Assembly: GCA_900546315.1 (NCBI GenBank)
Contig: URCP01000001.1
Span: forward strand, 2,852-66,851
DNA: 64,000 nt
Source: an uncultured Eubacteriales bacterium
GTDB taxonomy: Bacteria > Bacillota > Clostridia > Oscillospirales > CAG-272
Direction of reading: 5' to 3'
Shown in pieces: positions 22,700 to 64,000 of the stretch. Position numbers and translations under genes: made by a program. The notes beneath the pieces are model-generated. The model did not search any database. It was not told the origin of the DNA and was given only the letters and a program-made list of their open reading frames with translations. Position 1 is the first letter of the stretch; every line of letters starts with the position of its first letter.

Positions 22700-22819
22700 T
22701 TGAAAGATAAATCTTTCAATCCAGACATTTTGAGGCTTTCGTTGTCTTACGACAACGATTTTGCTTCGCAAAACCAGCCCCAAAACGGGGAGAAAGGATG
22801 CTTTCGCTGCGGCGAAAGC
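22700..22819 (+). promoter_or_regulatory. Array of five short perfect hairpins upstream of (or within the 5' end of) the HTH-SdaA gene
   Basis: Five hairpins: TTGAAAGA/TCTTTCAA (22700-22719), GTTGTC/GACAAC (22741-22756), TTTTGC/GCAAAA (22759-22773), CCCC/GGGG (22778-22790) and GCTTTCGC/GCGAAAGC (22800-22819). Confidence 0.4.
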
Positions 22820-22837
22820 TTTGGTTATAATCAAGAA

Positions 22838-26817: not shown

Positions 26818-26853
26818 GTTATCATGAGATGGTCAACGAAAAGGAGACAGCAG

Positions 26854-35047: not shown

Positions 35048-35102
35048 TGATCATTCCTCCGCAAAAAGATTTCCGGCGCCGCCGTGAACAGGACGCTGCC
35101 GT

Positions 35103-35149
35103 ATAAAAGAGCGGGGAGGCTCCGCTTTTCAAGCGGTGTTCCTCCCCGC
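35103..35149 (-). terminator. Terminator between the E1 gene and lplA
   Basis: On the minus strand: GCGGGGAGG pairs with CCTCCCCGC, followed by TCTTTTAT. Confidence 0.7.
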
Positions 35150-35159
35150 GGATCATCGA

Positions 35160-37646: not shown

Positions 37647-37673
37647 AACCTTTATCTCCTATATTCATTTGCT

Positions 37674-37721
37674 TGCAGGGAGGGGGAAAGCCCTTCGGGA
37701 AGGGCTTTCCCCCTCCCTGCA
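37674..37721. repeat. 48-nt near-perfect palindrome (22-bp stem) between the E3 and E1 genes
   Basis: TGCAGGGAGGGGGAAAGCCCTT-CGGG-AAGGGCTTTCCCCCTCCCTGCA. There is no flanking U-run on the transcribed (minus) strand. Confidence 0.8.
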
Positions 37722-37768
37722 CCCTCCCCTTTTCCCCAAGCTTCATACATGGGTTATTTAGAGGGATT

Positions 37769-39124: not shown

Positions 39125-39140
39125 ATCAGTCCTCCGTCAG

Positions 39141-40487
39141 TCACTTTGAGAGAAGCAGATCGAAGTCCGCGAGCGCCGCCGCGAGATCTTTAAGGAATCT
39201 CGCCGCCGGAGCCCCGTCGAGCGCCCTGTGGTCAAAGGTCAGCGACAGCCCCATCGCCGGGTATGTCGTCCCGTCCTCACGCGGTCTGTATGTCACGCAG
39301 TTTACTCCGAGTATGCAGACCTGCGGCGGATTTATGACCGGAGTGAAGCTTTCAATCCCGAGCGAGCCGAGATTCGTGACGGTTATCGTCCCGCCGGTCA
39401 GCTTATCGGGGGATATCGAACCGCTCTGCGCCTCTTTTATCAGAGCCTTTGCCTGTCTCGACAGCTCGCAGAGCGACAGCTTCTCAGCCCCGGCGAGCGT
39501 CGGAACCATAAGTCCGCGCTCCGTGTCAACCGCGATGCCGAGATTCACGGTGTCAAACACACGGATGAAATCCTCCATGAAATACGCGTTGCAGTCCTTA
39601 TGCGACAGCAGCGTCTTCGCGCAGGCGAAGAGAACCATATCGTTGAGGGTTATATTCGCGAGCCCCAGCTCCTCTCCGCGCGCCTTGACCCTCGCGCGGT
39701 AAGCGAGTATCGCCGACGCGTCAAACGAGGTGTTCAGAGTAAGCTGCGCCATCGTGGAGAGAGACGCGTGCATCGACTTCGCGATGACCCGGCGTATGTT
39801 CGTGAGCTTCACATCGGTGTACAGAGCCTCCGTTCCCGGAGACTTCATCTCCTGTACCGTTGTCTCAGGCACGGCGCTCTCTGCCGGAACTTCCGGCGCG
39901 GTCGTGGCGATATTCTCCGCTATCACAGTCTCCGTCTCTTCCGGAATATCCCTCTCCCCGGAGAGATATTTCTCAACCCTCTCTGTCGGAACAACATTTC
40001 CGTCATCAAGAATGCGATTCACGTCCCGCTCGATTATCCGCCCCATGGGTCCGGTCGGCGCCGCCTTCGAGAGGTCCGCGCCGGTCTTCAGCGCGAGATT
40101 CCGCGCCCTTGGTGAGATACGCAGGATATCGCCGGTTTCCTGAGCCGTGGCAACAACCGCGATATCCGTCTTTTCGGTCTCCGTTTCATCTGTCTCCGTC
40201 TCGTCCGGGGTTTCCTCACATTCAGGGCAAAAAGGTGAAATGTCCTCACCTTCCTCGCCTATCACGCATACATTCTCGAGGCAGGGAACGTCGTCACCCT
40301 CCTCGGCGAAAATTCCGAGCAGGACGCCGTCGACCGGGCTCTTCTCGTCAAAGCTCGATTTGTCGGTCTCATATGAGAAGAGAATGTCGCCGACCCTGAC
40401 GCGGTCGCCCTCCTTCTTGTGCCACTCGGTTATGACGCAGCTCTCGACGCTCTGCCCCTGCCGCGGCATTATTACAGCGATTGCCAT
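39141..40487 (-). CDS. Dihydrolipoamide acyltransferase (E2)
   Basis: Lipoyl domain with ETDKS, an acidic linker, a subunit-binding domain, and a catalytic domain ending DHRALDGA. Confidence 0.9.
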   Translation of the reverse strand: MAIAVIMPRQGQSVESCVITEWHKKEGDRVRVGDILFSYETDKSSFDEKSPVDGVLLGIFAEEGDDVPCLENVCVIGEEGEDISPFCPECEETPDETETDETETEKTDIAVVATAQETGDILRISPRARNLALKTGADLSKAAPTGPMGRIIERDVNRILDDGNVVPTERVEKYLSGERDIPEETETVIAENIATTAPEVPAESAVPETTVQEMKSPGTEALYTDVKLTNIRRVIAKSMHASLSTMAQLTLNTSFDASAILAYRARVKARGEELGLANITLNDMVLFACAKTLLSHKDCNAYFMEDFIRVFDTVNLGIAVDTERGLMVPTLAGAEKLSLCELSRQAKALIKEAQSGSISPDKLTGGTITVTNLGSLGIESFTPVINPPQVCILGVNCVTYRPREDGTTYPAMGLSLTFDHRALDGAPAARFLKDLAAALADFDLLLSK

Positions 40488-42394: not shown

Positions 42395-43419
42395 TTATTT
42401 GTCGGTATCGTCGTCAGTCTCGTCGTCTGACGCATCATCGTCGTTCTTTTCCGGTTTTTCGTCGAACGGGTCGGGCGTCGTGTCGTCGGAGGGAGCGCTC
42501 TCACCGTCCGCCTTTTCGACAGTCTTCACGGTGAAGTTCTCTTTTCCGGAGGACGCCGTACCGTTCAGGATATCGTGATCGGCGGAATAGACGCGCTCAT
42601 ACTCCGCGTCGTCGAGAGCCCTGTCCTTCGCACGGATGTTGCCGATTATCAGGAAGACAACGCCGAATATGAAGCAGAGCGCTCCGACCACCTGCGACAC
42701 GCGGATTGTCTCACCGAACACCGACTTCATAAAATACAGGCTGTCGGTGCGGAGCCCCTCGATGAAGAAACGTCCGAAGCCATACCACGTGATATAGGAG
42801 AGCACAATCTGCCCGTTGAACCTCTTCTTTTTATAGAAGCACATGATGAGGATGAAGCCGAGAAGATTCCAGAGCGACTCATAGAGGAAAGTCGGGTGAT
42901 AGTACTTCGTGACGGTCGAGCCAGCGTACATTATGCCCATTCTCCACGGGAGCTTCGTCTCAACGCCGTGCGCCTCGGCGTTTGTGAAATTGCCCCATCT
43001 GCCGATGGCCTGTCCGATCATGACGCCGGGAGCGACCATGTCGAGCATCTTCGCCGGGTTTATCTTCTTTACCTTCGCGACGACGTATATCGTTATCGTC
43101 CCGGCGATGACGCCGCCGTAGATCGCGAGTCCGCCGTTGCGGACGTTTATGAATGGTAGTCCTCGAGCTTCATCAGCACATAGTAGAGTCTCGCGCCGAT
43201 CATCGAGAAGATAATCAGGAATATCGCGAGGTCGAGCACGTCGTCGGTCTTTATCTTCTCGAACTTTGCGTTGTGAAGCGCGACGAAGAAACCGACCGCC
43301 ATGGCACAGGTGATGATTATCCCGTACCACATGATATCGAACCCGAATATCGAGAACGCGACCGGGTTCACGTTGAACCCGTCTATCCCGAGCCCGGGGA
43401 ATGAAATTACATTGCTCAT
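42395..43419 (-). pseudogene. lgt: Prolipoprotein diacylglyceryl transferase split by a 1-nt frameshift near 43150-43156 (or a sequencing error)
   Basis: ORF 43147-43419 encodes the Lgt N-terminus (...GARLYYVLMKLEDYHS*). ORF 42395-43330 continues in another frame with FINVRNGGLAIYGGV...GRWGNF.... Restoring one T in CATTC would join the two frames. Confidence 0.8.
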
Positions 43420-44720
43420 TTATTAACCTCCAAAGGGTTTACAACAGACATGGAATAGTATTCAGGTCTGAACGCGTCGTTCAGCAGCTTTGTCACATCG
43501 CCAATCGTCACGTTCTTTATAACATCCACATAGTCGAGAAGATCTCCGTCATCTATCTTGTAGTTCAGGAAGTAGTTCGCGATATCCTCGGTCGAGTCGA
43601 AGCACTTGACCATCGACGCGTAGAGAGCGCGCTTCGAGCGGTCGAAATCCTCCGCGGAAATGCCGTTTTTCTTCGTGTCCTCAACGCAGCTGACGAAGCG
43701 GTCGTACACCGCCTTCGGGTCGCGGCTCTCGCCGAACAAGGCATTAAACGAGTAGCTGTGGTTGATCTCCCAGCTGACATCGAACTGGCTTGAGAGCAGC
43801 CCCTCCTCGTACAGCTTGTTGTAGAACTCCCCGGACTTCCCGAACAGGACATCGTTCAGAATCTCCGCCTCGGCGTACTTCTTCATGCGCTCGTAACCGT
43901 CGGACGGAATGTCGATATCCTTGATTCCGATGCCGAAGAGCGGCTTTGAGACCTGCATCGCCTTCTCGGCGTAAGGCTTGTACACATCCGCTTTCTCAAC
44001 CGGGTAATCGCGGATGATGTCGACCGGCGCCTGCTTCTTCAGGACCTTGTCGCAGACCTCGTTCACCTCGTCGACCGTGACGTCACCGCAGACTATCAGC
44101 ATCATGTTCGACAGATTATAGAACACCCTGTAGCACTCATAGAGGATATCCGCCGTGATATGCGAGATCGACTCGACCGTTCCGGCGACGTTTATTCTGA
44201 CATTGTGCTTCTCATACAGGCTCTCAAGGAGCATCTGGTACATACTTCTGAACGGGTGGTCGTCGTACATGCGTATCTCCTGAGCGATTATCCCCTGCTC
44301 TTTCTCGACCGTCTCCGACGTGAAATACGGGGTCGTCACGAAGTCGAGCAGGATCTCAAGGTTCTCCTTGAAGCAGGACGTGCAGGAGAACAGATACGCC
44401 GTCATGTTGGTCGAGGTGTAGGCGTTCGCGTTCGCGCCGAATCTCGCGAAACGTTCGAAAGTATCCTCGCCGTTCGGGTTCTCGAACATCTTATGCTCGA
44501 GATAATGCGCGATACCGTCCGGAACTGTCGTGAATTCCTTGTCACCGGCGAGCCTGAACCTGCTGTCTATCGAGCCGTACCTCGTCGCGAAGAGCGCGTA
44601 GGATGTCGAGAGCTTTTTCGGGAAGACATAGACAGGAAGTCCGCTCTCATGCGTGTATTCGTAGTATTCTTCTTTCAGGAAATCGTTTCTTTTAGTCTTG
44701 TATTCAGGCATCCTCTTCAT
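43416..44720 (-). CDS. M16-family (pitrilysin-like) zinc peptidase, catalytic subunit
   Basis: Inverted zinc motif HYLEH (HxxEH) is present. Confidence 0.8.
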   Translation of the reverse strand: MKRMPEYKTKRNDFLKEEYYEYTHESGLPVYVFPKKLSTSYALFATRYGSIDSRFRLAGDKEFTTVPDGIAHYLEHKMFENPNGEDTFERFARFGANANAYTSTNMTAYLFSCTSCFKENLEILLDFVTTPYFTSETVEKEQGIIAQEIRMYDDHPFRSMYQMLLESLYEKHNVRINVAGTVESISHITADILYECYRVFYNLSNMMLIVCGDVTVDEVNEVCDKVLKKQAPVDIIRDYPVEKADVYKPYAEKAMQVSKPLFGIGIKDIDIPSDGYERMKKYAEAEILNDVLFGKSGEFYNKLYEEGLLSSQFDVSWEINHSYSFNALFGESRDPKAVYDRFVSCVEDTKKNGISAEDFDRSKRALYASMVKCFDSTEDIANYFLNYKIDDGDLLDYVDVIKNVTIGDVTKLLNDAFRPEYYSMSVVNPLEVNK

Positions 44721-46008
44721 CTCCTTCGCTCCCGTCGCCCTTCAGCGTGCCTCTCAGGAAGTAGACCGTGTCGACCGCTGACTTTTTTGCGGCAGCGATT
44801 ATCTCGTCCTTCGTCACAACCGACAGGCGCTCCGAAACGTCGTCCGGGGCTCCGCCGACGCCCGCGAGCATACGGCCGAGATACCAGCTCTCGAGCCCTC
44901 TCGCGCTGTCGGACAGCTCTCTGTAGCTGTTGACGAGACCGAGATAAGCGCTTCTCATCTCTTCCTCGGTGAACTCCCCGCGGCGCACCGCCTCGAGCTG
45001 ATCGTTTATCGCTGTCTCCGCGACCTCGCGGTTCTCCACCTCGATGCCCGACTGAACGAACAAAAGCCCCTTGTAGGAATCCGGAGAGCTCGAGCAGTAG
45101 TAGCACAGGCTCATCTTCTCGCGCACGTTCATAAACAGCTTCGACGTCACCCCGCCGCCGAAAATCTCGTTGAACATCAGCATCGCGGGATAATCCGGGT
45201 CGTGCAGCGTCACGCCGTAGCGCATGCCTATGACGAGCTTGCCCTGATTCACCGGCATATCCTCGTCGATGCGCTTCACGTCCGACACCGCGCGGACAAT
45301 CTCCGGCGCGGGAACGCTTATGATATCGCGCTCAAGACCGGCAAATACCGCTCTCAGCTTTTCCGCGAGCCTGTCCTCGTCGGTCTGACCGACGAAGAAT
45401 ATCTCTATCGGGTAATGCTTCAGCGCGTATCTGTACCGGGCATAGAGCGATTCCGGCGTTATCGCCTGAACGTCTCCGATAGTTCCGTTCTCGGACAACC
45501 CGTAGCGCTCGCCGCGGCACATCTCCTCGGTGCAGCGCTTCTTCGCGTAGTACGCCTTGTTGTTGATGTTCGCGTTTATCGCGTCGATCAGGTTGTTCTT
45601 CTCGCTCTCCGTGTAGGCGGCGTCGAAAGCCGCGCCGTCCGTCACCGGATTGAGCAGTATATCGCCCACGATTCCGACGATCTCCGAGAGCAGATCCTCC
45701 CCCTCGAGCGCGTAGCAGTTGTCGAGCACTCCGGCGCAGATTCCGAACACCTGCGCCTCCCCGCGCTTCTGGTTGCGGGAAGAGAGCCCGGCGTCGTAGA
45801 GATAGTCGAGCTTTTTGTTTATATCCGCCATCGTGGGATATGTCTCGCATCCGCGAAGCAGTACCGACGGTATCAGCGCGTTCGCGGCGGCGGTTTCCTT
45901 GTCGAGCGGAGAGATGAAGTTCACCGACAGAAAGTTCGTCTTGAACTTTCCGGTCGAAAGACAGGTGAGACCTATCCCCTCCGCGATCTTCCTTTTTTCG
46001 AGTCCCAT
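44704..46008 (-). CDS. M16-family peptidase-like protein lacking the HxxEH motif (non-catalytic partner)
   Basis: M16-like length and layout, but no HxxEH. It overlaps the downstream M16 gene by 17 nt. Confidence 0.7.
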   Translation of the reverse strand: MGLEKRKIAEGIGLTCLSTGKFKTNFLSVNFISPLDKETAAANALIPSVLLRGCETYPTMADINKKLDYLYDAGLSSRNQKRGEAQVFGICAGVLDNCYALEGEDLLSEIVGIVGDILLNPVTDGAAFDAAYTESEKNNLIDAINANINNKAYYAKKRCTEEMCRGERYGLSENGTIGDVQAITPESLYARYRYALKHYPIEIFFVGQTDEDRLAEKLRAVFAGLERDIISVPAPEIVRAVSDVKRIDEDMPVNQGKLVIGMRYGVTLHDPDYPAMLMFNEIFGGGVTSKLFMNVREKMSLCYYCSSSPDSYKGLLFVQSGIEVENREVAETAINDQLEAVRRGEFTEEEMRSAYLGLVNSYRELSDSARGLESWYLGRMLAGVGGAPDDVSERLSVVTKDEIIAAAKKSAVDTVYFLRGTLKGDGSEGDEEDA

Positions 46009-48541: not shown

Positions 48542-49996
48542 TTATTCGTATTTTCCGATGTCTTTTTCGATCTTCGCGATACTCTTGTCCTTAAGCGCCG
48601 CGATCTTCGAGGCGACAGCGGTATCGCCGGTGTTCAGCGTATTTATAAGCGCGGTTTCAATATCGCTTGTCCACCCGAGAATGACATCCGACGCCAGTGT
48701 GCGCGTTCTCGAGATGATACCGAGCATCTCGGCGGAATCGTCGTTTCTCGTGCCCTTCTGCATGAGATACGCGTTGTAGTACGGCTCCATAAGACTTATA
48801 TGGCTGTCATATGCCATTGCGTCAAGAATGGTGGCTGTCCGCGACAGGTCCGACACCGAGGACGGCACGACCATCAGTGTGGTTCCCCAGTTCGCCAGAA
48901 GCGAGATATAATCCTCCTGTGCCTCGTCGTACTTAGGAACCGGAATAACGCCGTAATCGTCCTTCATATCCCTGAGATTCGAGATACAGCCAAGCGTCTC
49001 GGAGCAGATCATCGCCCGTCCGCGCAGAAACGCGTCGAGGTCGGACATTCCGTCAGCCTTCTCAAAGCAGAGCACGCAGCCGTCCGTCGAGGCGAGCGCG
49101 CCCACCTTTTCGTAAATGCCGTACATCTTTTCGCTGTCAGCCCCGAAAACCGGCTTGCCGTCCTCGATCCACGCGAATCTTCCGCCTGAGCCGTAGATGA
49201 ACGCGTCGATCATTCCGAAGTGGGTTCCGAAGCCGTACCGGCAGCTTTCATCCGCTGCTATCGGCAGATAGCTCTCGTCGCCGTTCAGCGTGGCTCCGGC
49301 TTTACCGTATTCGGCAAGGCGGTCGACCGTCCATTTTCCCTGTCTTACAAGGTCATACGGCAGTTCAAGCCCGACATCCGTCATCGTTTTCTCGTTCATG
49401 AACAGAACGACCGTCGCCTCGAACGGGAAAAGGCATATATCGCTCGTCGTGAAATACAGATGCCCCATAATGTCCGCCGACTCGTTCACCATCTGGTCCC
49501 ACCAAGGTTTGTCGAGGTTCAGACCGTCGAGCCCTTTCAGGTCACAGAGGTAGTTGTCCCCGAGAAGCCCGCTCATCGTGTGCGCTGATATCATCGCGGC
49601 GGAATACACGTCCTCACCCGCGGTCACCGTCTTTTTTAGCTCGTTAGCGACATCGTTTATTCCGACCTGCCTGTCGCTTATCACGACGTTGTATCTGTCC
49701 TCTATCCGCGAGTTGCGCTCAAACATCGCGTCGCTCACGAGATCTCCGCTCATCTCTTCAGGGGCGATCATAACGTTCGCCCAGATCTCCGGCTCAATAT
49801 TCAGGAATGTGAACTCGAATCCGCCGTAATCGGCGGTCGGGTAGATGTAGTCCGCGGAGGTCACGCTTTCCGCTTCCGGCGTCGTCTTGTCCGTGTCCGG
49901 AGCGTCAGTCTCCTTGTCTGCGGTACCGCTGCCGCAGCCCGCCGCGAATGAGGAGGCGAGCATGAGAGCCGTTAATGTGATCAGTTCCTTTTTCAT
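48542..49996 (-). CDS. ABC-type extracellular solute-binding lipoprotein (orphan, paralog 2)
   Basis: Lipobox in LMLASSFAAGC-GSG. ~480 aa. Confidence 0.75.
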   Translation of the reverse strand: MKKELITLTALMLASSFAAGCGSGTADKETDAPDTDKTTPEAESVTSADYIYPTADYGGFEFTFLNIEPEIWANVMIAPEEMSGDLVSDAMFERNSRIEDRYNVVISDRQVGINDVANELKKTVTAGEDVYSAAMISAHTMSGLLGDNYLCDLKGLDGLNLDKPWWDQMVNESADIMGHLYFTTSDICLFPFEATVVLFMNEKTMTDVGLELPYDLVRQGKWTVDRLAEYGKAGATLNGDESYLPIAADESCRYGFGTHFGMIDAFIYGSGGRFAWIEDGKPVFGADSEKMYGIYEKVGALASTDGCVLCFEKADGMSDLDAFLRGRAMICSETLGCISNLRDMKDDYGVIPVPKYDEAQEDYISLLANWGTTLMVVPSSVSDLSRTATILDAMAYDSHISLMEPYYNAYLMQKGTRNDDSAEMLGIISRTRTLASDVILGWTSDIETALINTLNTGDTAVASKIAALKDKSIAKIEKDIGKYE

Positions 49997-50035
49997 TGAA
50001 AATTCTCCTTTGAAAATAAAAATTTTTATAAAAAT

Positions 50036-50045
50036 CCCCCCCCCC
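50036..50045. repeat. C10 (G10 on the coding strand) homopolymer in the GH36-SBP intergenic region
   Basis: Direct reading gives AAAATCCCCCCCCCCGAAAT. Confidence 0.9.
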
Positions 50046-50148
50046 GAAATTTTTACTGCAATTTAATGAAAATCTCAGCAAAGTCTCGGGGAGAGGTCGG
50101 AATTTATCTATGTAATCAGGACTGCGCGAATATCGGCGTCAAATAAGT

Positions 50149-52218
50149 TCAGCCGATTTTAACGTGTCTGTCCGCAAGCGGAATCTTCACGGTGTTCAGC
50201 ATACCGTTCACCGTGACCTTGTGCTTACCGCTCTCGGTCTCAACCGGATACTTCTTCCCGTCGGTGACGACGAAGGCGAACTCGCCGCCCTCATGGAGGT
50301 CATATACGCCGTCGAAGCCGCCGGAGACCGCCATTGGGGAGTTGAACTTGTCGATGAGACCGAGCACAGCGACGCCGTTCTCAACCGGAACTATCGTATA
50401 GAGCCTGAAATCGTCGTGGTCGTTCAGAGTGACATCGAGCGCCTCTCCGTCCTTCAATACCGTCACATCGCCGGAGAAGTGCTCATACACCGCCACCTCG
50501 CGGCAGCCGCAGCCGAGGTCGGCGACCGAAACGGTACCGCTCACCGGCTTGTTCCCGTGATCGAGGTTGAACGCCGCGATGACGCCGCCCTTCGCGTAGG
50601 TATTCTTCACCTTGAAGATCCTGCCGTTCGTCTCCGGGTCGGACACGAGGCAGTCCTTCGTCGGGATCGCCGGGTTCTCCGGGCGGAGGATTCGGCCGTC
50701 ACTGTAGCAGAGCGGCTCGAAGATCTCAGGACGGCTCCTGCCGATCCTATCGCTGACGTAGATCGGTCCGCCGGAGATCGCGCGCAGGACGCTGTTCTTC
50801 TTCGCCTGCTCGTCGTCGGACCACCACATATCCCAGTCGCTCCAGTAGAACATACCCTGAATGAGCGAGTTGTAGCTGCACGCGAGGATATGGCGGATGA
50901 ACCACTCGCGGTTCTCCGGCTGGAAGTCGCCGGAGCAGCGGGAAACCGCGCCGGACGGACGGTTGAACATATTCTCGCTCGCCATGCCCATGCAGTTTAT
51001 GATATCATTGTCGAAATGCGATCCGACCGAGCTCGTGATCGCCCTCTGGATATTTCTCGCCGCCTCGCCGAGCGGGTAGACGTTCTTATAATTGTCCGCG
51101 ATGAAACCCTGATTGTCGATCTTCACGAAGTCGGTCCCACAGTGCTTCAGGAAGTCGTGGAACGCGCTGTAGAACAGGAACGCCTTGTCAGGCTCAAGGC
51201 TCGGCATGAGCCTTCCGTTCGGCGTCTCGATGAGCAGATCGCGGTACTTCTCCGCGAGCTCCGACTCAGGGTCGATGCCAGCCCAGTATCCGCTCGTCGG
51301 GTGCCACATACCGATTTTCAGACCGTACTTCTTCATCTTATCAAGGCAGTCCTTGAGCCCGCCGGGGAATCTCTTCGGGTCAGCCTCGAAGCTGCGTATC
51401 TTCGACGAATGCATGACCGAGAACATACCGGTCTCGCGTGTGAGGTCGTCCGGGATATCGCGGAGCTTGTCGCACTCAGCCCACATATCGTCGATGATCG
51501 CCCATCTGAATGGAATCTTCTTCGCCTTTATCTCCTCGCACTTTTCGAGCAGACCCTCGGTGCTGACGCGTATCTCGAGCGCGTCCCACGAGCACCAGCC
51601 GAGGTATTCGAATATTTCCGGATAGCGGCGTTCTTCTCTGACCGGGCAGCCATTGTCAAGCAGCTTCATCGCGAGCTTCGCGCAGTCGTTCATCAGCGTG
51701 TACGGCTCGTCGCCCTCGCCGTAAACAGCCGCGAGCGTGTCGCAGTCGGAGAGGTCGGAAACGTTCGCGAACAGATAGAGTTCAGCCCCGTTCTCATTGC
51801 CGCGCAGAGCCGCCTTATAGCGCTTGTCGACTATCGGAAGGATGAAGCCGTACTTCCCGTCTGTCTTCTTATAAAGCAGCGCCTGCGTCCTGTTCTGTAT
51901 CTTTGAGAGATCGTCGCCGAACTGCGGTCTGCACCAGTGCGGGCAGCTCTGGAAGTTCGCCATATATCCCTCGATATCGCCGAGCGACGGGATAATGAAG
52001 CTAACTGCCGTGTCAGCGTCAAAGCATCCGCCCTTGACCGACGCCTTCACATACGCCGCGGTCAGCCTGCCGCACTTCTTTTCGGTTATCGCGGAAGAGA
52101 CCGTCGTCTTTCCTTCCTTGAGGGTGAACTTGCCCTTGCAGCGTCCGTCCGCGAGAGAAAGACAGCTCTCGTTTCCGGCAAGACGCGCGGTTGCCTTTGC
52201 GTTTTCAAACAGATTCAT
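50149..52218 (-). CDS. Sip1/raffinose-synthase-like GH36-clan glycoside hydrolase (alpha-galactosidase-like)
   Basis: LGWCSWDALE and AIIDDMW motifs are typical of the raffinose-synthase/Sip1 family. Confidence 0.7.
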   Translation of the reverse strand: MNLFENAKATARLAGNESCLSLADGRCKGKFTLKEGKTTVSSAITEKKCGRLTAAYVKASVKGGCFDADTAVSFIIPSLGDIEGYMANFQSCPHWCRPQFGDDLSKIQNRTQALLYKKTDGKYGFILPIVDKRYKAALRGNENGAELYLFANVSDLSDCDTLAAVYGEGDEPYTLMNDCAKLAMKLLDNGCPVREERRYPEIFEYLGWCSWDALEIRVSTEGLLEKCEEIKAKKIPFRWAIIDDMWAECDKLRDIPDDLTRETGMFSVMHSSKIRSFEADPKRFPGGLKDCLDKMKKYGLKIGMWHPTSGYWAGIDPESELAEKYRDLLIETPNGRLMPSLEPDKAFLFYSAFHDFLKHCGTDFVKIDNQGFIADNYKNVYPLGEAARNIQRAITSSVGSHFDNDIINCMGMASENMFNRPSGAVSRCSGDFQPENREWFIRHILACSYNSLIQGMFYWSDWDMWWSDDEQAKKNSVLRAISGGPIYVSDRIGRSRPEIFEPLCYSDGRILRPENPAIPTKDCLVSDPETNGRIFKVKNTYAKGGVIAAFNLDHGNKPVSGTVSVADLGCGCREVAVYEHFSGDVTVLKDGEALDVTLNDHDDFRLYTIVPVENGVAVLGLIDKFNSPMAVSGGFDGVYDLHEGGEFAFVVTDGKKYPVETESGKHKVTVNGMLNTVKIPLADRHVKIG

Positions 52219-52246
52219 TTTTCGTAGTTCCTTTCAGGATTTATTT

Positions 52247-53068
52247 TTACCGACTGAGCTTCGCGTTTCTGAACAATGTCAGATCGACCTCGCGGTTCTT
52301 TTTATTCTCAAGGGTGTAGACCCTTCCGACGCCCTCGTACTTCGCGCCGGCGAAGCTGTTGTAGCCGAGGAGCTCGACCGGACTGTCGCCGACGATCTCC
52401 GCTATCGCCGCGAGATTTTCCCTCGTGTCGGTGATGTCGGGTATCAGCGGGACTCGAATCAGGTGCGGTTTGCCGCTCGCCTTCAGCCGCTCAAAATTCG
52501 CGAGGATCGGTGAATTATCGACCCCGCACCACTTTTTGTGCTGCTCCGGGTCGGCGAGCTTTATGTCCATCATCACAAAGTCTGCGTTGTCTATCACGGA
52601 CATATATCTATCCGCCGAGGTGAAGCCGCAGGTTTCCACAGCTCTGTGGATCTTCTTCTCTCCGAGAAGCCCGAGAAGCTCCGACACGAACTCCGCCTGC
52701 ATTGTAGGCTCTCCGCCCGACACCGTAACCCCGCCGCCGGACGACGCGAAGAAATCCGCTTCCCTCGCGAGCTTTTCGGCGAGCTTTCCGGCGTCCCACG
52801 TCTTTCCGATGATCGAGACGAGCCCGTCCGGACAGGCATGTATGCAGCGGTGGAACGGCTGGCACTCGGGATGAGTACACGGCTTCAGGCACCGCCCGCA
52901 GTGCCTGCATCTCGCCGTCCTCACCATTATCTCCGGCTCCGGTGACAGTCCCTCCGGGTTGTGACACCACTTGCAGGAGAGCGGACAGCCCTTCATGAAC
53001 ACCGTTGTGCGCACACCGGGTCCGTCGTGAACCGAAAACTCCTTGATATCAAATATCGTTCCGGTCAT
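52247..53068 (-). CDS. Glycyl-radical enzyme activating protein (radical SAM, with a ferredoxin-like Cys insert)
   Basis: CPLSCKWCHNPE radical-SAM cluster motif plus CRHCGRCLKPC...CIHACP auxiliary cluster motifs. Confidence 0.9.
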   Translation of the reverse strand: MTGTIFDIKEFSVHDGPGVRTTVFMKGCPLSCKWCHNPEGLSPEPEIMVRTARCRHCGRCLKPCTHPECQPFHRCIHACPDGLVSIIGKTWDAGKLAEKLAREADFFASSGGGVTVSGGEPTMQAEFVSELLGLLGEKKIHRAVETCGFTSADRYMSVIDNADFVMMDIKLADPEQHKKWCGVDNSPILANFERLKASGKPHLIRVPLIPDITDTRENLAAIAEIVGDSPVELLGYNSFAGAKYEGVGRVYTLENKKNREVDLTLFRNAKLSR

Positions 53069-53069
53069 A

Positions 53070-55040
53070 TCAGACAGTGTATTCCTGACGCGCTATGACG
53101 TGATCCTGATATTCCTTGTCGAGCTCGACGAAGTACGCGCTCCAGCCCCAGATCCTGACGACAAGGCGCTTGTGATCCTCGGGATGCTTCTGCGCGTCCT
53201 TCATTGTCTCGAGGTTCACGGCGTTCAGCTGGAGCTGATGTCCTCCGCGGTCTATGAAATACTTCACGATCGACGCGACCTTCTCAAGGCTGCCCTCGCC
53301 GCGGAAAACGCTGTTGTGGAACTCGAGCGTGAGCGGTCCACCGTTTATCGCGCGCACAAAATGCTGCTTCGTGAAGGACTTCACGACGGAAACCGGTCCT
53401 GAGACCTTCGCGAACAGGCTCGCCGAGAAGTTCGTGCCGAAAGGCTCTCCGCTGCGGCGGCCGTCCGGGGACGCGCCGATCTCTCTCGCGTGCCAGAGGT
53501 AGAACATAGCGCTTCCGGTTCCCGCGCGCCAAACGCCGCCCTCGCAGTTCTTCTTTCCTTCAAGGCAGTCGGCGAAGGTGTCGAGCAGCTCAACCGAGAT
53601 ATTGTCGACATAATCGTCGTCACAGCCCATCTTCGGCGCCTCGTTTCTGAGCTTGTCAAGAAGCTCCGGAGAGTTCTCAAAGTTCTCGTCCACCGCCTTC
53701 AGCATATCCGCGGCGCTTATGTACTTTTCGTCAAAGACATACTTCTTTATAGCGGCGAGCGAGTCAGCGGCGGTCGCGATTCCTGTTCCGTGCATACCGA
53801 AATTGCGATATTTTATGTCGTCGAGCATCACGCCCATGAACGGCGACGGGACGAACCACAGATCGTGTATGCCGTTCATTATTTCCTCGCACTCCGAGTT
53901 AATCTCCTTCTTCGTGAGCGCCATGACCTCGTCGAAGTCCTTGCAGTCTGTAAAGCCGTTGTGGAGCATCCTGTCCACCGCCTTCGGGTAGGACATCGCG
54001 CCGATATTCACGACGTCGAACGCGCATCCGGGAATGATGAACTCCCAGCAAGCGGCGACGACATAGTTCGCGGCGTCCTCCGGCGCGTATCCCTTGCGCT
54101 TCAGCCCCTCAATGACGACGTCGTCGTTCGAGTACTGCGGGAAACCGAGCCCCGCCTTCGTGAGCTCAGTGCCGAGTATGTACTGCTCCATCGGCGTCTT
54201 CTTCGACACGCGGAGATTTATCTTCGGGTCGATGAGCTTCAGGTCGCGGCTCGCGATCAGGCAGAGCCTAGAGAGCTCGTTGAAGACGTCATTTCCGTTC
54301 TCGTCGATGCCGCCGAGGACCATCGACTGTCCGTTGTCTCCCTGCTGAACGCCGACATAGAGATCCGAGTCCTTGTTGAACGAGATGAAGAAGTCCTTCA
54401 GAAGCTCGAGCGCCGTCTCCTCGGTATAGACGCCCTTGTCCATATCCGCCCTGAAATACGGATACATATACTTGTCAAAGCGTCCGGTGGTGTTGTGATA
54501 GTTGCCCTCGAGCCAGAGCGAGAAATGCAGGATGCGGAACATCTGCAGAGCCTCGCGGAAGCTCGTCGCGCCGTATCTCGGCACTCTCTCGAGCACCTTC
54601 GCGATATCCTCGCGGCCGACCCTCAGCGCCTCCTCGCGGTATCTGTCGGCGAGAGCGATTATATTGTCAATGGCGCGCTTTCCGTACTCGTCCGCGCCCT
54701 TCCTCAGAGCGAGAAGACCCTTCGATATCGCCTTTTCGTAATCCGGCGAGAGGTTCGAGATATATCCGAGCTCGTGGATGAAGTGCTTCGAGCGTATCTC
54801 CTTCCACTCATCCTCAGTGAAGCAGTCCGGGATATTCTTCACCGTGCGGACAAAGCAGATCTTCTCGTCCGGGAGAATGTGCGGCTTCTCTGCCTTCGTG
54901 AGCCTCTCAAAGCGATCCGCCATCCTCTCGACCGGGCTCATCTTTGCCTCGCTGTATATCTTCGCGAGCGGTTCGGTGTATTCCTCGCGGAAAGCGTGAT
55001 GCTTCTTCGCGAGAACATATTCAAGCAGTTCTTGTGACAT
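53070..55040 (-). CDS. Glycyl radical enzyme, unusually short (656 aa), PFL2/dehydratase-like
   Basis: C-terminal glycyl-radical motif LVVRIWGWSAYFVEL and a Cys-x-Glu catalytic-loop candidate VVAACWEFIIPG. The stop lies 2 nt before the activase start. Confidence 0.8.
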   Translation of the reverse strand: MSQELLEYVLAKKHHAFREEYTEPLAKIYSEAKMSPVERMADRFERLTKAEKPHILPDEKICFVRTVKNIPDCFTEDEWKEIRSKHFIHELGYISNLSPDYEKAISKGLLALRKGADEYGKRAIDNIIALADRYREEALRVGREDIAKVLERVPRYGATSFREALQMFRILHFSLWLEGNYHNTTGRFDKYMYPYFRADMDKGVYTEETALELLKDFFISFNKDSDLYVGVQQGDNGQSMVLGGIDENGNDVFNELSRLCLIASRDLKLIDPKINLRVSKKTPMEQYILGTELTKAGLGFPQYSNDDVVIEGLKRKGYAPEDAANYVVAACWEFIIPGCAFDVVNIGAMSYPKAVDRMLHNGFTDCKDFDEVMALTKKEINSECEEIMNGIHDLWFVPSPFMGVMLDDIKYRNFGMHGTGIATAADSLAAIKKYVFDEKYISAADMLKAVDENFENSPELLDKLRNEAPKMGCDDDYVDNISVELLDTFADCLEGKKNCEGGVWRAGTGSAMFYLWHAREIGASPDGRRSGEPFGTNFSASLFAKVSGPVSVVKSFTKQHFVRAINGGPLTLEFHNSVFRGEGSLEKVASIVKYFIDRGGHQLQLNAVNLETMKDAQKHPEDHKRLVVRIWGWSAYFVELDKEYQDHVIARQEYTV

Positions 55041-55096
55041 ATAATCAAGTCCTTTCCTTGGGATAAATCCGTATGGTATTCCGAGCTTACAATTAT

Positions 55097-55124
55097 ATTA
55101 TAACAGAGTTTGTCCGCTTGTCAA
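55097..55124 (-). promoter_or_regulatory. Promoter of the GRE-activase-GH36 operon
   Basis: On the minus strand: TTGACA, 16-nt spacer, TATAAT. Confidence 0.75.
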
Positions 55125-55240
55125 TATTTTTCACTGGACATAAATATACTTTTTCTGGTCATACCGGGCGAGAAAACAACGCGGCGCGTTACCGACGCGA
55201 ATATTTACCGGAATCTGCATAAAAAAAACTGAAAATTCCA

Positions 55241-55269
55241 TTGATTTCCGGAGCGGGATGTGGTAATAT
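55241..55269 (+). promoter_or_regulatory. Promoter of the FucI-like gene
   Basis: TTGATT, 17-nt spacer, TAATAT. Confidence 0.65.
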
Positions 55270-55336
55270 AGATATAGACGCGGTCTGTCCGCGCCCTTAC
55301 ATTAAAAAATCAATTTTTCACAAAGGAGATTTACAT

Positions 55337-57103
55337 ATGAACAAACCGATCATAGGTATCCGCCCCATCATCGACGGACGCCGCAGAGGCATCCGCGAGA
55401 GCCTTGAAGACCAGACCATGAACATGGCGAAGGCGGCGAAGGAACTCATCGAGTCAAAGCTCTTCTACCCGGACGGCACCCACGTCGAGTGCGTCATCGC
55501 CGACACAACGATCGGCGGCGGGGCGGAGGCTGCTGCCTGCGCCGAGAAATTCTCGAAGCTCAACGTCTGCGCGACCCTCTCGGTCACTCCCTGCTGGTGC
55601 TACGGCAGCGAGACGATGGACCTCGATCCCCTGACCACCAAGGCTGTCTGGGGCTTCAACGGAACCGAGCGCCCCGGCGCCGTATATCTCGCGGCTGTCA
55701 TGGCGGCTCACGCGCAGAGAGGTCTCCCGGCGTTCGCCATCTACGGTCACGACGTTCAGGACATGAACGACACCACCATCCCGGCTGACGTGGAGGAGAA
55801 GATCCTGCGTTTCGCGCGCTGTGCAATCGCTGTCGGAATGATGCGCGGCAAGGCGTACTGCGGACTCGGAGCGGTCGCGATGGGTATCGCGGGCTCATTT
55901 GAGGATCCGGACTTCTTACAGAAGTATCTCGGTATCCGCGCGGAGTGGGTTGACATGGTCGAAATCCTCAGAAGGATAGACCTTGGCATCTACGATCACG
56001 CCGAGTACGAGAAGGAACTCGCGTGGATCAAGAAGAACTGCAAGAAGGGACTCGAGGTCAACATCCCCGAACTTCAGAACAACGCGGAACAGGACGAGAA
56101 GGAATGGGAATTCATCGCGAAGATGACTATCATCGTCCGCGACATAATGCTTGGAAACCCTGTCCTGGCGGACATGGGATATGTCGAGGAGTCGAACGGC
56201 AGAAACGCCATCTTCGGCGGCTTCCAGGGTCAGCGCCAGTGGACCGACTACAAGCCGAACGCTGACTTCACCGAGGCTATTCTCAACACGACCTTTGACT
56301 GGAACGGCAAGCGTCCTCCGTTCATTCTCGCTACCGAGAACGACGGACTCAACGGACTCGCGATGCTGCTTCTGAATCTTGTCACGAACCGTCCGGCTAT
56401 CTTCTCTGACGTGCGCACATACTGGTCACCCGACGCTGTTAAGAGAGTGGCGGACTATGAAGTGACCGGCAAAGCGGCGAACGGCTTCATGCACCTTATA
56501 AACTCCGGCGCTTCGGCGCTCGACGGAAACGGCGCTTCGAAGGACGAGAACGGCGAGTCCGTCATGAAGGAATGGTGGAACGTCACCGACGCCGATATGC
56601 AGGCAATGCTTGAGGCAACCAAGTGGGCTCCAGCAAACAAAGGCTACTTCAGAGGCGGCGGATTCTCAAGCCAGTATGTCTCCAAGGGCGAAATGCCCGT
56701 GACCATGGTGAGAGTCAACCTTGTTGACAAGCTCGGACCGGTCATTCAGATTGCCGAGGGTTACACCGTTGAGCTTCCGGAAAAGGTTAACCACGCTCTT
56801 CTCGACCGCACCGACCCGACCTGGCCGTCCATCTGGTTCGCACCGTCGCTCACCGGCGAAGGCGCGTTCACGGATGTATACAGCGTAATGGCAAACTGGG
56901 GCGCAAACCACGGCGCGTCCGTATACGGACACGTCGGCGCGGACATCATCACACTGGCGTCGATGCTCAGAATTCCGGTTTCGATGCACAACGTCCCGGC
57001 AGACAAGATCTACCGCCCGCACGCGTGGTCCGCTTTCGGCACCACCAACACCGAAGACGCTGACTACAGAGCCTGCGCGGCTTACGGTCCGTTATACAAA
57101 TAA
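55337..57103 (+). CDS. fucI: L-fucose isomerase family protein
   Basis: 588 aa. N-terminal sequence [30 protein letters not shown]... and ...[12 protein letters not shown] are recognised as FucI-like. The ATG at 55337 follows AAGGAG. Confidence 0.8.
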
Positions 57104-57117
57104 GACCTGAAACACAT

Positions 57118-57159
57118 ACAGCGCCGTCCCGCTTAAGCGGGACGGCGCTGTAGTTTTTT
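57118..57159 (+). terminator. Terminator after the FucI-like gene
   Basis: CAGCGCCGTCCCGC-TTAA-GCGGGACGGCGCTG, followed by TAGTTTTTT. Confidence 0.9.
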
Positions 57160-57164
57160 GTTAT

Positions 57165-58604
57165 TCAGTTCGCTTTGTAGACGTCTGTTATCAGCTTCTG
57201 GACGTTGTCCGCCACCTTATTCTTCACCTTCGCGTAGTAGGTCGGGAGGGATTCGCCGGATGTGATCACCGAGATTATGCTGAAGTCCGCCGCCTCGTCG
57301 TAGAAGGACGCGCTGTCATTGATTATCGGTATCATCTGCTCCGACTCGGTGTCGCGCGCTATCTTGACCGTCAGCGCAACGTCGAAATACGCCGGCACAA
57401 CCGTATTGTAGGACACTGCGGACATTACCTCGAGCACCGCTCCGGTGAGCTCCGGTCTCGTGTTCGTCACCGGGATATAGCTGAGCCCCGCGCAGTTTCC
57501 GACGCGGACGTTGTAGCCTTCCTGCGCCTCGTCAAACTTCGGGTAAGGAACAAAGCCGAAATCGTCCTTCATATCACGCATATTCCGGATATCGCCGAGA
57601 CTCGAGTGATCAAACATCAGAGTACCGTTCTTGAACGCCGTGTCGAAGGTTCCGTAAGTCGCCGTCTCATACGCCGCGCCGTCCATCGCGAAAAGCTCGT
57701 TCATCTTTTCGACAACCGCGATGTTGCGCTCGGTCTCTATCGATATGACCGGCATATTGTCCTTGTCCTTCGTTATGACGTCTCCGCCGAGAGCCATGTA
57801 GAGCGACGGGACGCTCTCCCAGAGCCAGCCCCAATAGCCGAACTGGTCGACATTCGGGTCAATGATCGTGTCACCATTAAGATCGCGCGTTGCGCTCGCG
57901 ACCATTTCGACAAATCTGTCATATGTCCACTTCCCGTCAAGCACAAGCTGATAGGGATAATCATACCCCGCCTCATTGACAAGACGCTTGTTGAATGCGA
58001 GGATATGCGACGCTCTCAGTATCTCGAGGTTGTACATTCCGGTCATCGCGTATATCTTGTTGCCGTAATTAATGTCGCGTATACAGTTCGCATACCAGTA
58101 CGGCTTCGAAAAGTCTACATTCGGAAGCGTATTCCAGTCAATGAAGCACCCCTCGGAGATAAGCCCCGGCATACCGGAATGCTGAACGTGGATGAAGAGA
58201 TCATTCGAGGTATCGCCTGACATGACGAACGAACGTATCTGCTGCGTCGCGGCGCCCTGCGAGCCTCCGTCCGTAGCGAATCCGCCTTCGGTGAATTTCA
58301 GACTGATTCCGAGCCGCTCCTCCACAGCGCGGTTGCGCTCCCATATTGCGTCGTCAACATTGTCACCCGTCTCTTCCTCAACAAACATCGTTTTGACCGG
58401 ATACGCGAGATAAATATTGAATTCCTCGCCGTCAAAACGTATGTCCCCGAGATCGTCTGTGACCGTTTTTTCAGTCTCCTCCACGGTCGTCGACTCCTCG
58501 GTATTTCCTGAAGTATCATCCTTCTCCGTGCCTGCGGAAGAACCGCAGGACACCGCGGACACAAGCATCAGAAGGGCGAGGACAAACGAAATCTTTCTGT
58601 TCAT
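57165..58604 (-). CDS. ABC-type extracellular solute-binding lipoprotein (orphan, paralog 3)
   Basis: Lipobox in LLMLVSAVSC-GSS. ~480 aa. Confidence 0.75.
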   Translation of the reverse strand: MNRKISFVLALLMLVSAVSCGSSAGTEKDDTSGNTEESTTVEETEKTVTDDLGDIRFDGEEFNIYLAYPVKTMFVEEETGDNVDDAIWERNRAVEERLGISLKFTEGGFATDGGSQGAATQQIRSFVMSGDTSNDLFIHVQHSGMPGLISEGCFIDWNTLPNVDFSKPYWYANCIRDINYGNKIYAMTGMYNLEILRASHILAFNKRLVNEAGYDYPYQLVLDGKWTYDRFVEMVASATRDLNGDTIIDPNVDQFGYWGWLWESVPSLYMALGGDVITKDKDNMPVISIETERNIAVVEKMNELFAMDGAAYETATYGTFDTAFKNGTLMFDHSSLGDIRNMRDMKDDFGFVPYPKFDEAQEGYNVRVGNCAGLSYIPVTNTRPELTGAVLEVMSAVSYNTVVPAYFDVALTVKIARDTESEQMIPIINDSASFYDEAADFSIISVITSGESLPTYYAKVKNKVADNVQKLITDVYKAN

Positions 58605-62676: not shown

Positions 62677-63507
62677 TCATATCCCGAGCGCGCCGCGCAG
62701 GAACCTCGCGACACCGTCCTCGCCGTTCGCGCCGATCACCCCGTCGGCCGCGCTGACGACCTCCGGGACCGCGTTCGCGACGGCGTACCGCTCATCCGCG
62801 GCGCGGAACATATCGAGATCATTCTCCGCGTCGCCGAACACTACTGTTCTTTCGCACCCGAGCAGCTCCGCGAGCTTCTTCATCGCGCTCGCCTTTGACG
62901 CCCCCTCGGGCAGGAGCTCGAGCCACATATCGCCGGTATAATAGTCCGGATGGTTCAGCACAGTGACCCCGCGGCGCGCCGATATCTCAGCCGCCGCCGC
63001 GGAGAGCCGCCCGGCGTCGCCTATACAGGCTATATAGAAAGCGTCTCCCGACCACAGCTCGTCGTCAGACGCCGCCGGGCGGTTTCTGGGATCAATCCCT
63101 CTCGAATCGATAAATGCTCTCTCCTCCGGCGTTATCCTGTCCGGCAGATATGAGAAATACTCATCCGCTCCGTCGAGCGTATAGACTATCGCCGGTATTC
63201 CGTATCTGTCAAGGACGCCGCGCAGATACTCCGCGTCCTCCCGCCCGAAGAGATTCTTCAGGACAAAGCTGCCGTCCTTCTTCTGGATGAAAGCGCCGTT
63301 GTGAAGTATCATCGGGAGCCCGCCCGGGGCGTCTCCGACCACCTTCATCGCGGTGACATACGACCTCGCGGTCGCGAACGCCAGCCTGACGCCCCCGGCG
63401 ACAAGCCTGTCAAGCGTCTCAAGCGTGTAAGCGCTCAGCCTCCCGTCCGGAGCGAGAAGCGTTCCGTCAAGATCCGAGACAAACAGCGTTTTTCCGATAT
63501 CATACAT
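62677..63507 (-). CDS. Cof-type HAD-IIB family hydrolase
   Basis: FVSDLDGTLL motif I and GDAENDLDMF motif IV. The start is trimmed to ATG 63507 (ATG 63537 is an alternative). Confidence 0.8.
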   Translation of the reverse strand: MYDIGKTLFVSDLDGTLLAPDGRLSAYTLETLDRLVAGGVRLAFATARSYVTAMKVVGDAPGGLPMILHNGAFIQKKDGSFVLKNLFGREDAEYLRGVLDRYGIPAIVYTLDGADEYFSYLPDRITPEERAFIDSRGIDPRNRPAASDDELWSGDAFYIACIGDAGRLSAAAAEISARRGVTVLNHPDYYTGDMWLELLPEGASKASAMKKLAELLGCERTVVFGDAENDLDMFRAADERYAVANAVPEVVSAADGVIGANGEDGVARFLRGALGI

Positions 63508-63536
63508 TCTGCCGTGACCATTCCTTTCAGCATACA

Positions 63537-64000
63537 TCAGACATTTGGCGGCAGATCGGTCTCGACGCCGGAGAGATAGCTGTTCTCCGAGACCTTTATG
63601 ACCTCGACCGTGTGCTTTCCGGCGTCGTACACCGCGGTCGTCGCCGACGCGTTGCTGACCCACTTCGGGCCGTCGGGGAGCGCGCCCATATTCACCCATT
63701 CACGCAGAAGCATCCTTATCGGCGTCGCGTGGGTCGCGACAAGAACGGTTTTACCATCGCACAGCGCGGCGAGACGCCAGACCTCTTTCGTGACCCGCTC
63801 CGCGAGCTCGCGGACGCTCTCACCGCCGGTCGGGCGCGCGTTCATTATATCGTTCTGCCACACGCCGAAGTCCGCGCCGTATATCTCCTCGATTTTTGAA
63901 AACTCCTCATTCTCCCACTTTCCTGCGCTTATCTCGCGCAGGGCTTTGTCCGGCACCGGAATTATGCCGTGCGGCTCCGCGATAATTTTTCCGGTCTCAT
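63537..64000 (-). CDS. Histidine phosphatase (phosphoglycerate-mutase-like) family protein, N-terminus outside window
   Basis: GGESVRELAERV and VLVATHATPIR motifs. The frame stays open to the window edge. Confidence 0.7.
   Translation of the reverse strand, partial: ETGKIIAEPHGIIPVPDKALREISAGKWENEEFSKIEEIYGADFGVWQNDIMNARPTGGESVRELAERVTKEVWRLAALCDGKTVLVATHATPIRMLLREWVNMGALPDGPKWVSNASATTAVYDAGKHTVEVIKVSENSYLSGVETDLPPNV

Follow-up and report, generated by a model that had tools for sequence, protein, structure and literature searches.

Glycyl radical enzymes (GREs) stand behind consequential reactions of the anaerobic gut, among them those of trimethylamine (TMA), p-cresol, H2S and hydroxyproline metabolism. 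According to a 2026 review (PMC13450708), a CXE motif defines the 1,2-eliminase and isomerase classes of these enzymes, whose known members are six C-O eliminases, CutC, three C-S lyases and the three isomerases HplG, YbiW and PflD. In the same review the sugar-acting GREs are only the anhydro-alditol-6-phosphate isomerases, PflD and YbiW (1,5-anhydromannitol-6-phosphate and 1,5-anhydroglucitol-6-phosphate C-O lyases; PDB 8id0, 8yjo and 8id7) are the sole characterised GREs acting on a pyranose ring, and whole GRE clades still lack a function; the words 'truncated' and 'shorter' are not used there, and neither a compact GRE nor one linked to a glycoside hydrolase is described in the sections consulted. 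Targeted full-text searches for literature linking GREs to raffinose synthase, galactosides, cyclitols or arabinofuranosidases returned nothing relevant. Here we describe a locus on a 64,000-nucleotide stretch (the window) of contig URCP01000001.1, from an uncultured Eubacteriales bacterium. We interpret positions 50149-55124 of its minus strand, with a probability of about 0.55, as an operon for an uncharacterised compact GRE family working in plant-glycoside catabolism.

Open reading frame (ORF) listing and hidden Markov model scans of the window, with annotation of its 40 largest ORFs, confirmed the positions given in a preliminary description of this DNA for four genes, those encoding the compact GRE, its activating radical S-adenosylmethionine enzyme (activase), a Raffinose_syn/Sip1 protein of the plant type of glycoside hydrolase family 36 (GH36), hereafter SIP, and an L-fucose isomerase-family protein, FucI, divergent from the GRE (Table 1). 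The consensus promoter proposed there for the GRE, activase and SIP genes was likewise borne out: it is one of just two perfect sigma-70 matches in 10.5 kb and ends 57 nucleotides upstream of the GRE ATG. The GRE and activase genes are separated by 1 nucleotide, the activase and SIP genes by 28, and a hairpin with a U-rich run follows SIP. The promoter upstream and the hairpin and U-run downstream delimit the three genes as one unit, and the tight gaps, consensus promoter and terminator-like hairpin support their prediction as a single transcription unit. Also as described before, no microcompartment, aldehyde dehydrogenase or permease (ABC) genes were found among the 40 annotated ORFs, the remainder of which are housekeeping genes.

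The GRE carries its radical glycine, G632, within the sequence R629-I-W-G632-W-S-A-Y-F (RIWGWSAYF), invariant in the family alignment, and a Cys loop, AAC331-W-E333, of the form CXE, in which C331 aligns with C433 and E333 with E435 of glycerol dehydratase (GD). The C331-W332-E333 triplet is invariant in alignments of the 656-residue subfamily to which the window protein belongs and is kept in four intact sequences compared from the 688-residue type described below. Barrel and glycine-radical domains, an RVxG-type motif, a catalytic Cys and a cognate activase together place the protein in the PFL-like superfamily, and its CXE motif puts it in the 1,2-eliminase/isomerase class. A loop at residues 231-239, VQQGDNGQS, is specific to the family, in which R505 is also invariant. 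The activase has the cluster motif CX3CX2C (C28, C32 and C35), and its Cys-rich ferredoxin-like insert, with seven Cys in residues 54-79, is shortened; the protein scores above the TIGR02494 cut-off and below the cut-off of every equivalog, its top equivalog match being the HypD activase (1.5e-73, 248 against a cut-off of 425).

The GRE itself fell below every curated NCBIfam GRE cut-off tested. Scores and cut-offs were 303/678 for TIGR01774 (PFL2/glycerol dehydratase), 294/1100 for HypD, 275/1000 for HpfG, 250/1000 for HpsG, 252/1109 for PflD (NF007437), 227/1050 for CutC and 72/994 for PFL, and by these whole-protein cut-offs the enzyme has no membership in the named equivalogs HypD, HpfG/HpsG, CutC, PflD, PFL, HPAD and IAD. 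Among solved structures the top sequence match was 1r8w, the C. butyricum GD DhaB1 (E 3e-78; profile 2e-93), followed by propanediol dehydratase (PD), PflD and HypD. An AlphaFold2 model (pLDDT 82.6, pTM 0.85) has the GRE fold, and Foldseek aligned it to eliminases and isomerases, including PD, GD, PflD, CutC and HypD, with template modelling (TM) scores of 0.75-0.82; since all eliminases and isomerases score alike, the fold search cannot discriminate function.

The window GRE thus shares with GD and with the R. inulinivorans PD (5i2g) a barrel fold (TM approximately 0.8), the Gly-radical motif, a CXE Cys loop, the His at the GD H281 position and an adjoining dedicated activase. Unlike them it is only 24-26 % identical in sequence and 131 residues shorter than GD, its first 135 residues are unmatched, and it comes without a microcompartment or downstream aldehyde enzymes. 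It also differs at S282, Y640, D447 and the Y339 loop of GD, which are substrate contacts in that enzyme: GD S282 (HypD D278) is replaced by N183, GD Y640 (IslA V680) by G509 and GD D447 by N345, and the Y339 loop by the invariant VQQGDNGQS. From these altered positions we infer a larger, more polar pocket. Similarity to PflD and YbiW is comparable (profile E 2e-85, TM 0.81-0.82), the CXE motif is common to them and the window enzyme, and both occur in carbohydrate utilisation contexts. However, the window GRE lies far below the NF007437 cut-off, is partnered by a glycoside hydrolase, lacks a phosphotransferase system or phosphosugar context and is usually without an adjoining aldolase, and its substrate, unlike theirs, is probably not phosphorylated. 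HypD, the trans-4-hydroxy-L-proline dehydratase, is the second-best NCBIfam match (2.1e-87), but both the GRE and its activase miss the HypD cut-offs, D278 is changed, and the context is one of sugars and sugar transporters. Taken together, these comparisons point to a new subfamily that would work like a CXE-type GRE and whose substrate is probably new as well.

Compactness is a property of the whole family. Alignments to solved GREs start at approximately residue 110-140 of the query, corresponding to residue 212-232 of the targets, and of the residues missing relative to GD approximately 99 are from the N-terminus and 32 from loops. In other GREs the N-terminal region is a conserved dimer interface, according to the review cited above (PMC13450708). 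The N-terminal 135 residues matched no solved GRE among PDB sequences, so equivalents of GD His164 or of IslA Arg189/Gln193 were not located, H89-E90 being a guess. A phmmer search with the N-terminal 112 residues against 1.8 billion representative proteins gave 283 matches, and because all the full-length ones are 620-702 residues long the small size is a family trait rather than a truncation. It may show what the smallest working architecture of a GRE is, and the oligomeric state may differ too. In three distant compact members, P0151, P0255 and P0266, either the CWE motif of the Cys loop or the RVWGWS glycine motif is gone, or both are, and the last two appear C-terminally truncated or divergent; such relatives may be inactive or of different function.

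The third product of the unit, SIP, aligns over 430 residues (E 5e-59) with AtRS6 (PDB 7exf) of the plant alkaline alpha-galactosidase/raffinose synthase family and keeps the KxD, DDxW, SxDF and DWDMW motifs of that family. In SIP these include KID368, SxD431F and DD243/244MW, with D368, D431, D243 and D244 invariant in 15 homologues; in GH36 enzymes KxD contains the nucleophile and SxDF the acid/base. SIP is accordingly predicted to be a cytoplasmic glycosidase of the plant-type GH36, or Raffinose_syn, family. It differs from its plant counterparts in being a bacterial, cytoplasmic protein whose gene shares an operon with that of a radical enzyme.

To place the locus among its relatives, GTDB species genomes were scanned, giving at least 171 species with a close GRE relative (62-86 % identity), of which 80 loci (L numbers) were analysed, the sampled genomes being related metagenome-assembled genomes (MAGs). 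The activase adjoins the GRE in 73 of the 80. SIP, at 37-77 % identity to the window protein, lies within 10 kb of the GRE in 22, and in a neighbour-joining tree of the GREs these SIP-bearing loci are spread over all three major clades. In the reverse direction, a SIP profile had matches in 478 species, and a compact GRE was present in 33 of the best 80 SIP loci. After deduplication there were 38 distinct GRE-SIP loci with at least three gene orders (GRE-activase-SIP 22, SIP-GRE-activase 14, opposite strand 2). In L091, L092 and L094 the activase gene is directly upstream of SIP with the GRE absent from the locus, and in the L008-L010 clade the GRE has no adjoining activase and sits beside metG/tatD; L092 and L010 are different contigs of one assembly, with the GRE on L010 and activase-SIP on L092. 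Retention of GRE and SIP together despite such rearrangement argues for functional coupling, with the caveat of the related MAGs.

The wider neighbourhood is also of a sugar-utilising type. Sugar-type regulators (AraC with a cupin domain, or LacI) stand directly beside the GRE in 28/80 loci, and recurrent neighbours include cupin-bearing regulators of the AraC type (20 loci), LacI regulators (10), GH36 melibiases (6) and GH51 enzymes (3), together with SGNH and alpha/beta-hydrolase esterases (17), Cof-type HAD phosphatases (7) and DUF4867 proteins (4). SIP for its part neighbours ABC sugar systems and GpsA-like genes as well as GH2, GH3 and an enzyme resembling GH37/63. The window encodes a Cof-type HAD phosphatase at 62677-63699 (minus strand), and others are near the GRE in L037, L042 and L056, directly upstream in the first two; their recurrence may indicate that a phosphorylated intermediate is involved.

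Conservation did not extend to FucI or the flanking lipoproteins. The preliminary description had proposed hydrolysis of a glycoside, isomerisation of the released sugar and then radical dehydration, in a carbohydrate-linked locus that includes a FucI-like isomerase and has lipoprotein substrate-binding proteins (SBPs) on both flanks. The carbohydrate link and the distinctness of the GRE from known GRE routes were supported by the conserved GRE-SIP pair and by failure against every curated equivalog, and the conservation and rearrangement of that pair across distant relatives make a carbohydrate-linked GRE unlike the known ones a reasonable reading. The isomerisation step, however, lost its footing, as FucI is near the GRE only in L002, L004, L043, L061, L079 and L087, all of the window's own clade, where it travels with ComEC-YfmF-YfmH synteny and often has other genes between it and the GRE (L004, L043, L061, L087). 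As FucI is clade-limited and often separated from the GRE, there is no conserved control region shared by the two. The order of steps is not supported and stays conjectural, the carbohydrate link running through SIP and not through FucI or the SBPs. The SIP-LP gene order is kept within the window's clade, to which SBP-like neighbours of the GRE are confined, and the LP family recurs beside SIP elsewhere. FucI and the SBP-like lipoproteins therefore appear to be lineage-specific neighbours rather than core parts, and GH29 fucosidases in four loci (L001, L005, L007, L050) hint only weakly at a fucose connection in the window's lineage.

A sister subfamily was found in the representative-protein search, with GREs of 688 residues that are 44-49 % identical to the window GRE and have the motifs AACWE, QQGDNGQS, R-x-GTG-x-AM and RVWGWS in common with it. 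At least 588 species from several phyla carry it, of which 80 loci (L161-L240) were analysed, and its hosts include Bacteroidales, Treponema, Verrucomicrobiota and Lachnospiraceae (Hungatella hathewayi DSM 13479, Eisenbergiella tayi, C. symbiosum and Enterocloster hominis), an example being the GRE at 10001-12073 of L201, from H. hathewayi DSM 13479. Gene calls place an activase next to the GRE or upstream of it in 54/80 loci, and an activase-like match was obtained by translated search in 75/80. The order is mostly activase-GRE. Surrounding genes encode Sugar_tr transporters of the major facilitator superfamily (MFS; 20 of the 80 loci), GH51-type (18) and GH127 (10) arabinofuranosidases, aldose 1-epimerases (11), LacI (14) and GntR-type (13) regulators, FGGY kinases (6) and GH36 or GH-D-like enzymes (8), with ABC sugar systems also present; SIP was found in none.

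From these data we favour the interpretation of the unit as serving plant-glycoside catabolism, and the following sequence of events is proposed. SIP would hydrolyse an imported alpha-galactoside, and the activase would place a radical on G632 of the GRE. A thiyl radical at C331 would then abstract hydrogen at a carbinol carbon in one of the hydrolysis products, E333 would deprotonate the hydroxyl of the same carbon, and the adjacent C-O bond would break, either in a dehydration, as in GD and PD, or in a ring-opening isomerisation, as in PflD and YbiW. Our best guess for the substrate, a speculative one, is a neutral galacto or arabino monosaccharide (D-galactose, L-arabinose) or the ketose or alditol derived directly from it. 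This class is suggested because the window subfamily neighbours alpha-galactosidase-type enzymes and the sister subfamily mainly arabinofuranosidases, monosaccharide MFS transporters and aldose 1-epimerase, and it is preferred since the galacto configuration is common to the D-galactose and L-arabinose released by the enzymes of both. The bolder proposal, that the compact family as a whole (656 and 688 residues; at least approximately 750 species) performs a hitherto unknown radical C-O cleavage directly on the neutral galacto or arabino sugar freed by alpha-galactosidases and arabinofuranosidases, is put forward as a long shot. If true, D-galactose and L-arabinose would enter anaerobic catabolism by a new route, and the GREs would gain a reaction class next to that of the anhydro-sugar-phosphate isomerases.

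Several observations weigh against the favoured interpretation. A recognisable glycosidase was present in just 19/46 loci with long flanks (approximately 40 %), many GRE-activase pairs stand alone by housekeeping genes such as nrdD or metG, and no conserved downstream enzyme for the product was found among the GRE operon mates. The loci come from related MAGs, hence the counts are not numbers of independent events. The substrate proposal leans on gene context and on an assumed common function of both subfamilies, and among solved structures it is the polyol dehydratases GD and PD that come closest in sequence.

This last point is the starting point for the best placed alternative, in which the GRE would be a compact glycerol or 1,2-propanediol dehydratase of known chemistry, providing an aldehyde for redox balancing from glycerol derived from galactosylglycerols or galactolipids, or from 1,2-propanediol derived from fucose through FucI. 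The top sequence and fold matches to 1r8w and 5i2g and the retention of the CXE motif and of a His matching GD H281 are in keeping with it, as are FucI or GH29 close to the GRE in L050 and in most members of the window's clade, the esterases in 17/80 loci, and the GpsA-like genes adjoining SIP in three loci, where a GH2 beta-galactosidase is found too. We nevertheless regard this as unlikely. The TIGR01774 score is less than half the cut-off, and the GD residues that contact the substrate are changed, the Y339 loop reading QQGDNGQ. Shell genes and aldehyde dehydrogenase are absent among the annotated window ORFs and none were recognised among the annotated recurrent neighbour clusters, 1,3-propanediol dehydrogenase is not among the recurrent operon mates either, and the fucose genes are limited to one clade.

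A second alternative would deny the co-location of the GRE with SIP or other glycosidases any direct metabolic meaning, the GRE acting on an unrelated small molecule and merely residing in the sugar-rich regions of saccharolytic Clostridia. Such genomes are dense in GH genes, those sampled are related MAGs, the operon mates of the GRE are very diverse, and in most of the 80 GRE loci there is no glycosidase within 10 kb. Set against this are the 38 distinct GRE-SIP loci with several gene orders in all three clades, the activase-SIP pair kept where the GRE lies elsewhere, the AraC-cupin or LacI regulator directly beside the GRE in 28/80 loci, and the sister subfamily with a consistent sugar context of its own in other phyla, and we judge chance co-location to be quite improbable.

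The weakest alternative, in which the GRE would be a C-S lyase for a compound derived from a sulfosugar and SIP a clan GH-D sulfoglycosidase, is suggested by DUF4867 genes (SftX-like, of sulfoquinovose clusters; PMC11968277) in four GRE and four SIP loci (L056 in both), by FucI-family isomerases in sulfoglycolysis clusters and by the invariant R505 on the active-site strand that bears the sulfonate-binding Arg of IslA/IseG, but it is very improbable given that R505 falls two residues before the position of IslA R678 (G507 in the GRE, by an approximate coordinate mapping), that sulfite exporter, sulfite reductase and sulfolactaldehyde enzymes are not among the recurrent neighbours, that the window FucI is a bona fide FucI equivalog, and that most DUF4867 genes lie in ordinary aldose/ketose clusters (PMC11968277). 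A hydroxyproline/extensin route combining GH127 with a HypD-like enzyme was rejected because N183 replaces HypD D278 and the transporters are sugar-type.

The compact family, whatever its substrate, is widespread in gut, rumen and sediment anaerobes, with at least 171 and at least 588 species-level genomes in the two subfamilies. Among cultured strains, Bianquea renquensis NSJ-32, Hungatella hathewayi DSM 13479, Eisenbergiella tayi and Enterocloster hominis carry it, as does a Clostridium symbiosum MAG. Every named database record met for a compact GRE reads merely 'pyruvate formate-lyase'; identification of the substrate would give a function to a gene so named and add a reaction to anaerobic carbohydrate metabolism.

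Table 1. Features of the compact GRE locus and associated genes, in window coordinates
Feature	Position	Strand	Properties
GRE (compact glycyl radical enzyme)	53070-55040	-	656 aa; PF02901 8.7e-86, PF01228 2.7e-18
Activase (GRE-activating radical SAM enzyme)	52247-53068	-	273 aa; TIGR02494 281 bits vs cut-off 174
SIP (Raffinose_syn/Sip1, GH36 plant-type)	50149-52218	-	689 aa; PF05691 6.3e-69, 233 bits vs cut-off 20
Sigma-70 type promoter	55124-55097	-	TTGACA, 16 nt, TATAAT with TG extended -10; 12/12 match
Terminator-like hairpin and U-rich run downstream of SIP	50013-50096 (hairpin 50037-50096)	-	z = -2.6 vs shuffles
FucI (L-fucose isomerase)	55338-57103	+	588 aa, divergent from GRE; NF008220 1016 bits vs cut-off 775
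Bidirectional terminator hairpin	57117-57152		16 bp stem; between FucI and LP2
LP1 (lipoprotein, divergent SBP homologue)	48542-49996	-	own ribosome-binding site
LP2 (lipoprotein, divergent SBP homologue)	57165-58604	-	26 % identical to LP1
Third LP paralogue	27862-29310	-	26 % identical to LP2

Of the genes flanking the unit, the one described earlier as FucI-like proved on its scores, which include 961 against a TIGR01089 cut-off of 850, and its domains PF07881, PF07882 and PF02952 to be, as judged from sequence, a true, equivalog-level L-fucose isomerase. Its start had to be moved: the ORF as first listed opened at TTG 55241, whereas the start is the ATG at 55338 behind a AAAGGAGA ribosome-binding site, and gene calling carried out independently on the source scaffold yields the same protein. 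The designation of the flanking lipoproteins as SBPs held in part. LP1 and LP2 both carry lipobox signals and have no Pfam or NCBIfam match even at E<=1, but a profile of 18 LP-family members matched a Pfam-positive family-1 SBP family by profile-profile comparison (hhalign; probability 99.4 %, E 1.5e-21, 283 columns). Because the profile matches an SBP family while Pfam matches are absent, 'orphan SBP-like lipoproteins' is a fair description. An AlphaFold2 model of LP2 built from the three window paralogues was too poor for a fold search (pLDDT 37). The third paralogue adjoins an AraC-family regulator gene (26824-27780, plus strand), without permease genes there, and in L090 seven copies of the LP family surround SIP. 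Between SIP and LP1 there is a run of ten C at 50036-50045 (G10 on the coding strand), nine bases of which form the 3' stem arm of the hairpin; variation in the length of this homopolymer could alter read-through into LP1.

Elsewhere in the window a YfmH/YfmF pair at 43416-46008 (minus strand) lies directly downstream of ComEC, and this ComEC-YfmF-YfmH synteny is common to close relatives of the GRE locus. YfmH and YfmF are M16 peptidase-like proteins tied to the 5-aminopentanol modification of EF-P. The longest ORF for an L-serine dehydratase (22700-24310, plus strand) joins the beta and alpha domains in one chain with an N-terminal HTH_3 domain; either the fusion is an unusual one or the start is over-extended. 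A cluster at 34013-40487 (minus strand) encodes a lipoate-protein ligase, a fused 828-residue E1 (dehydrogenase and transketolase-like), E3 and E2, followed by a DeoR regulator, and genes for such a 2-oxoacid dehydrogenase complex are worthy of note in a presumed strict anaerobe.

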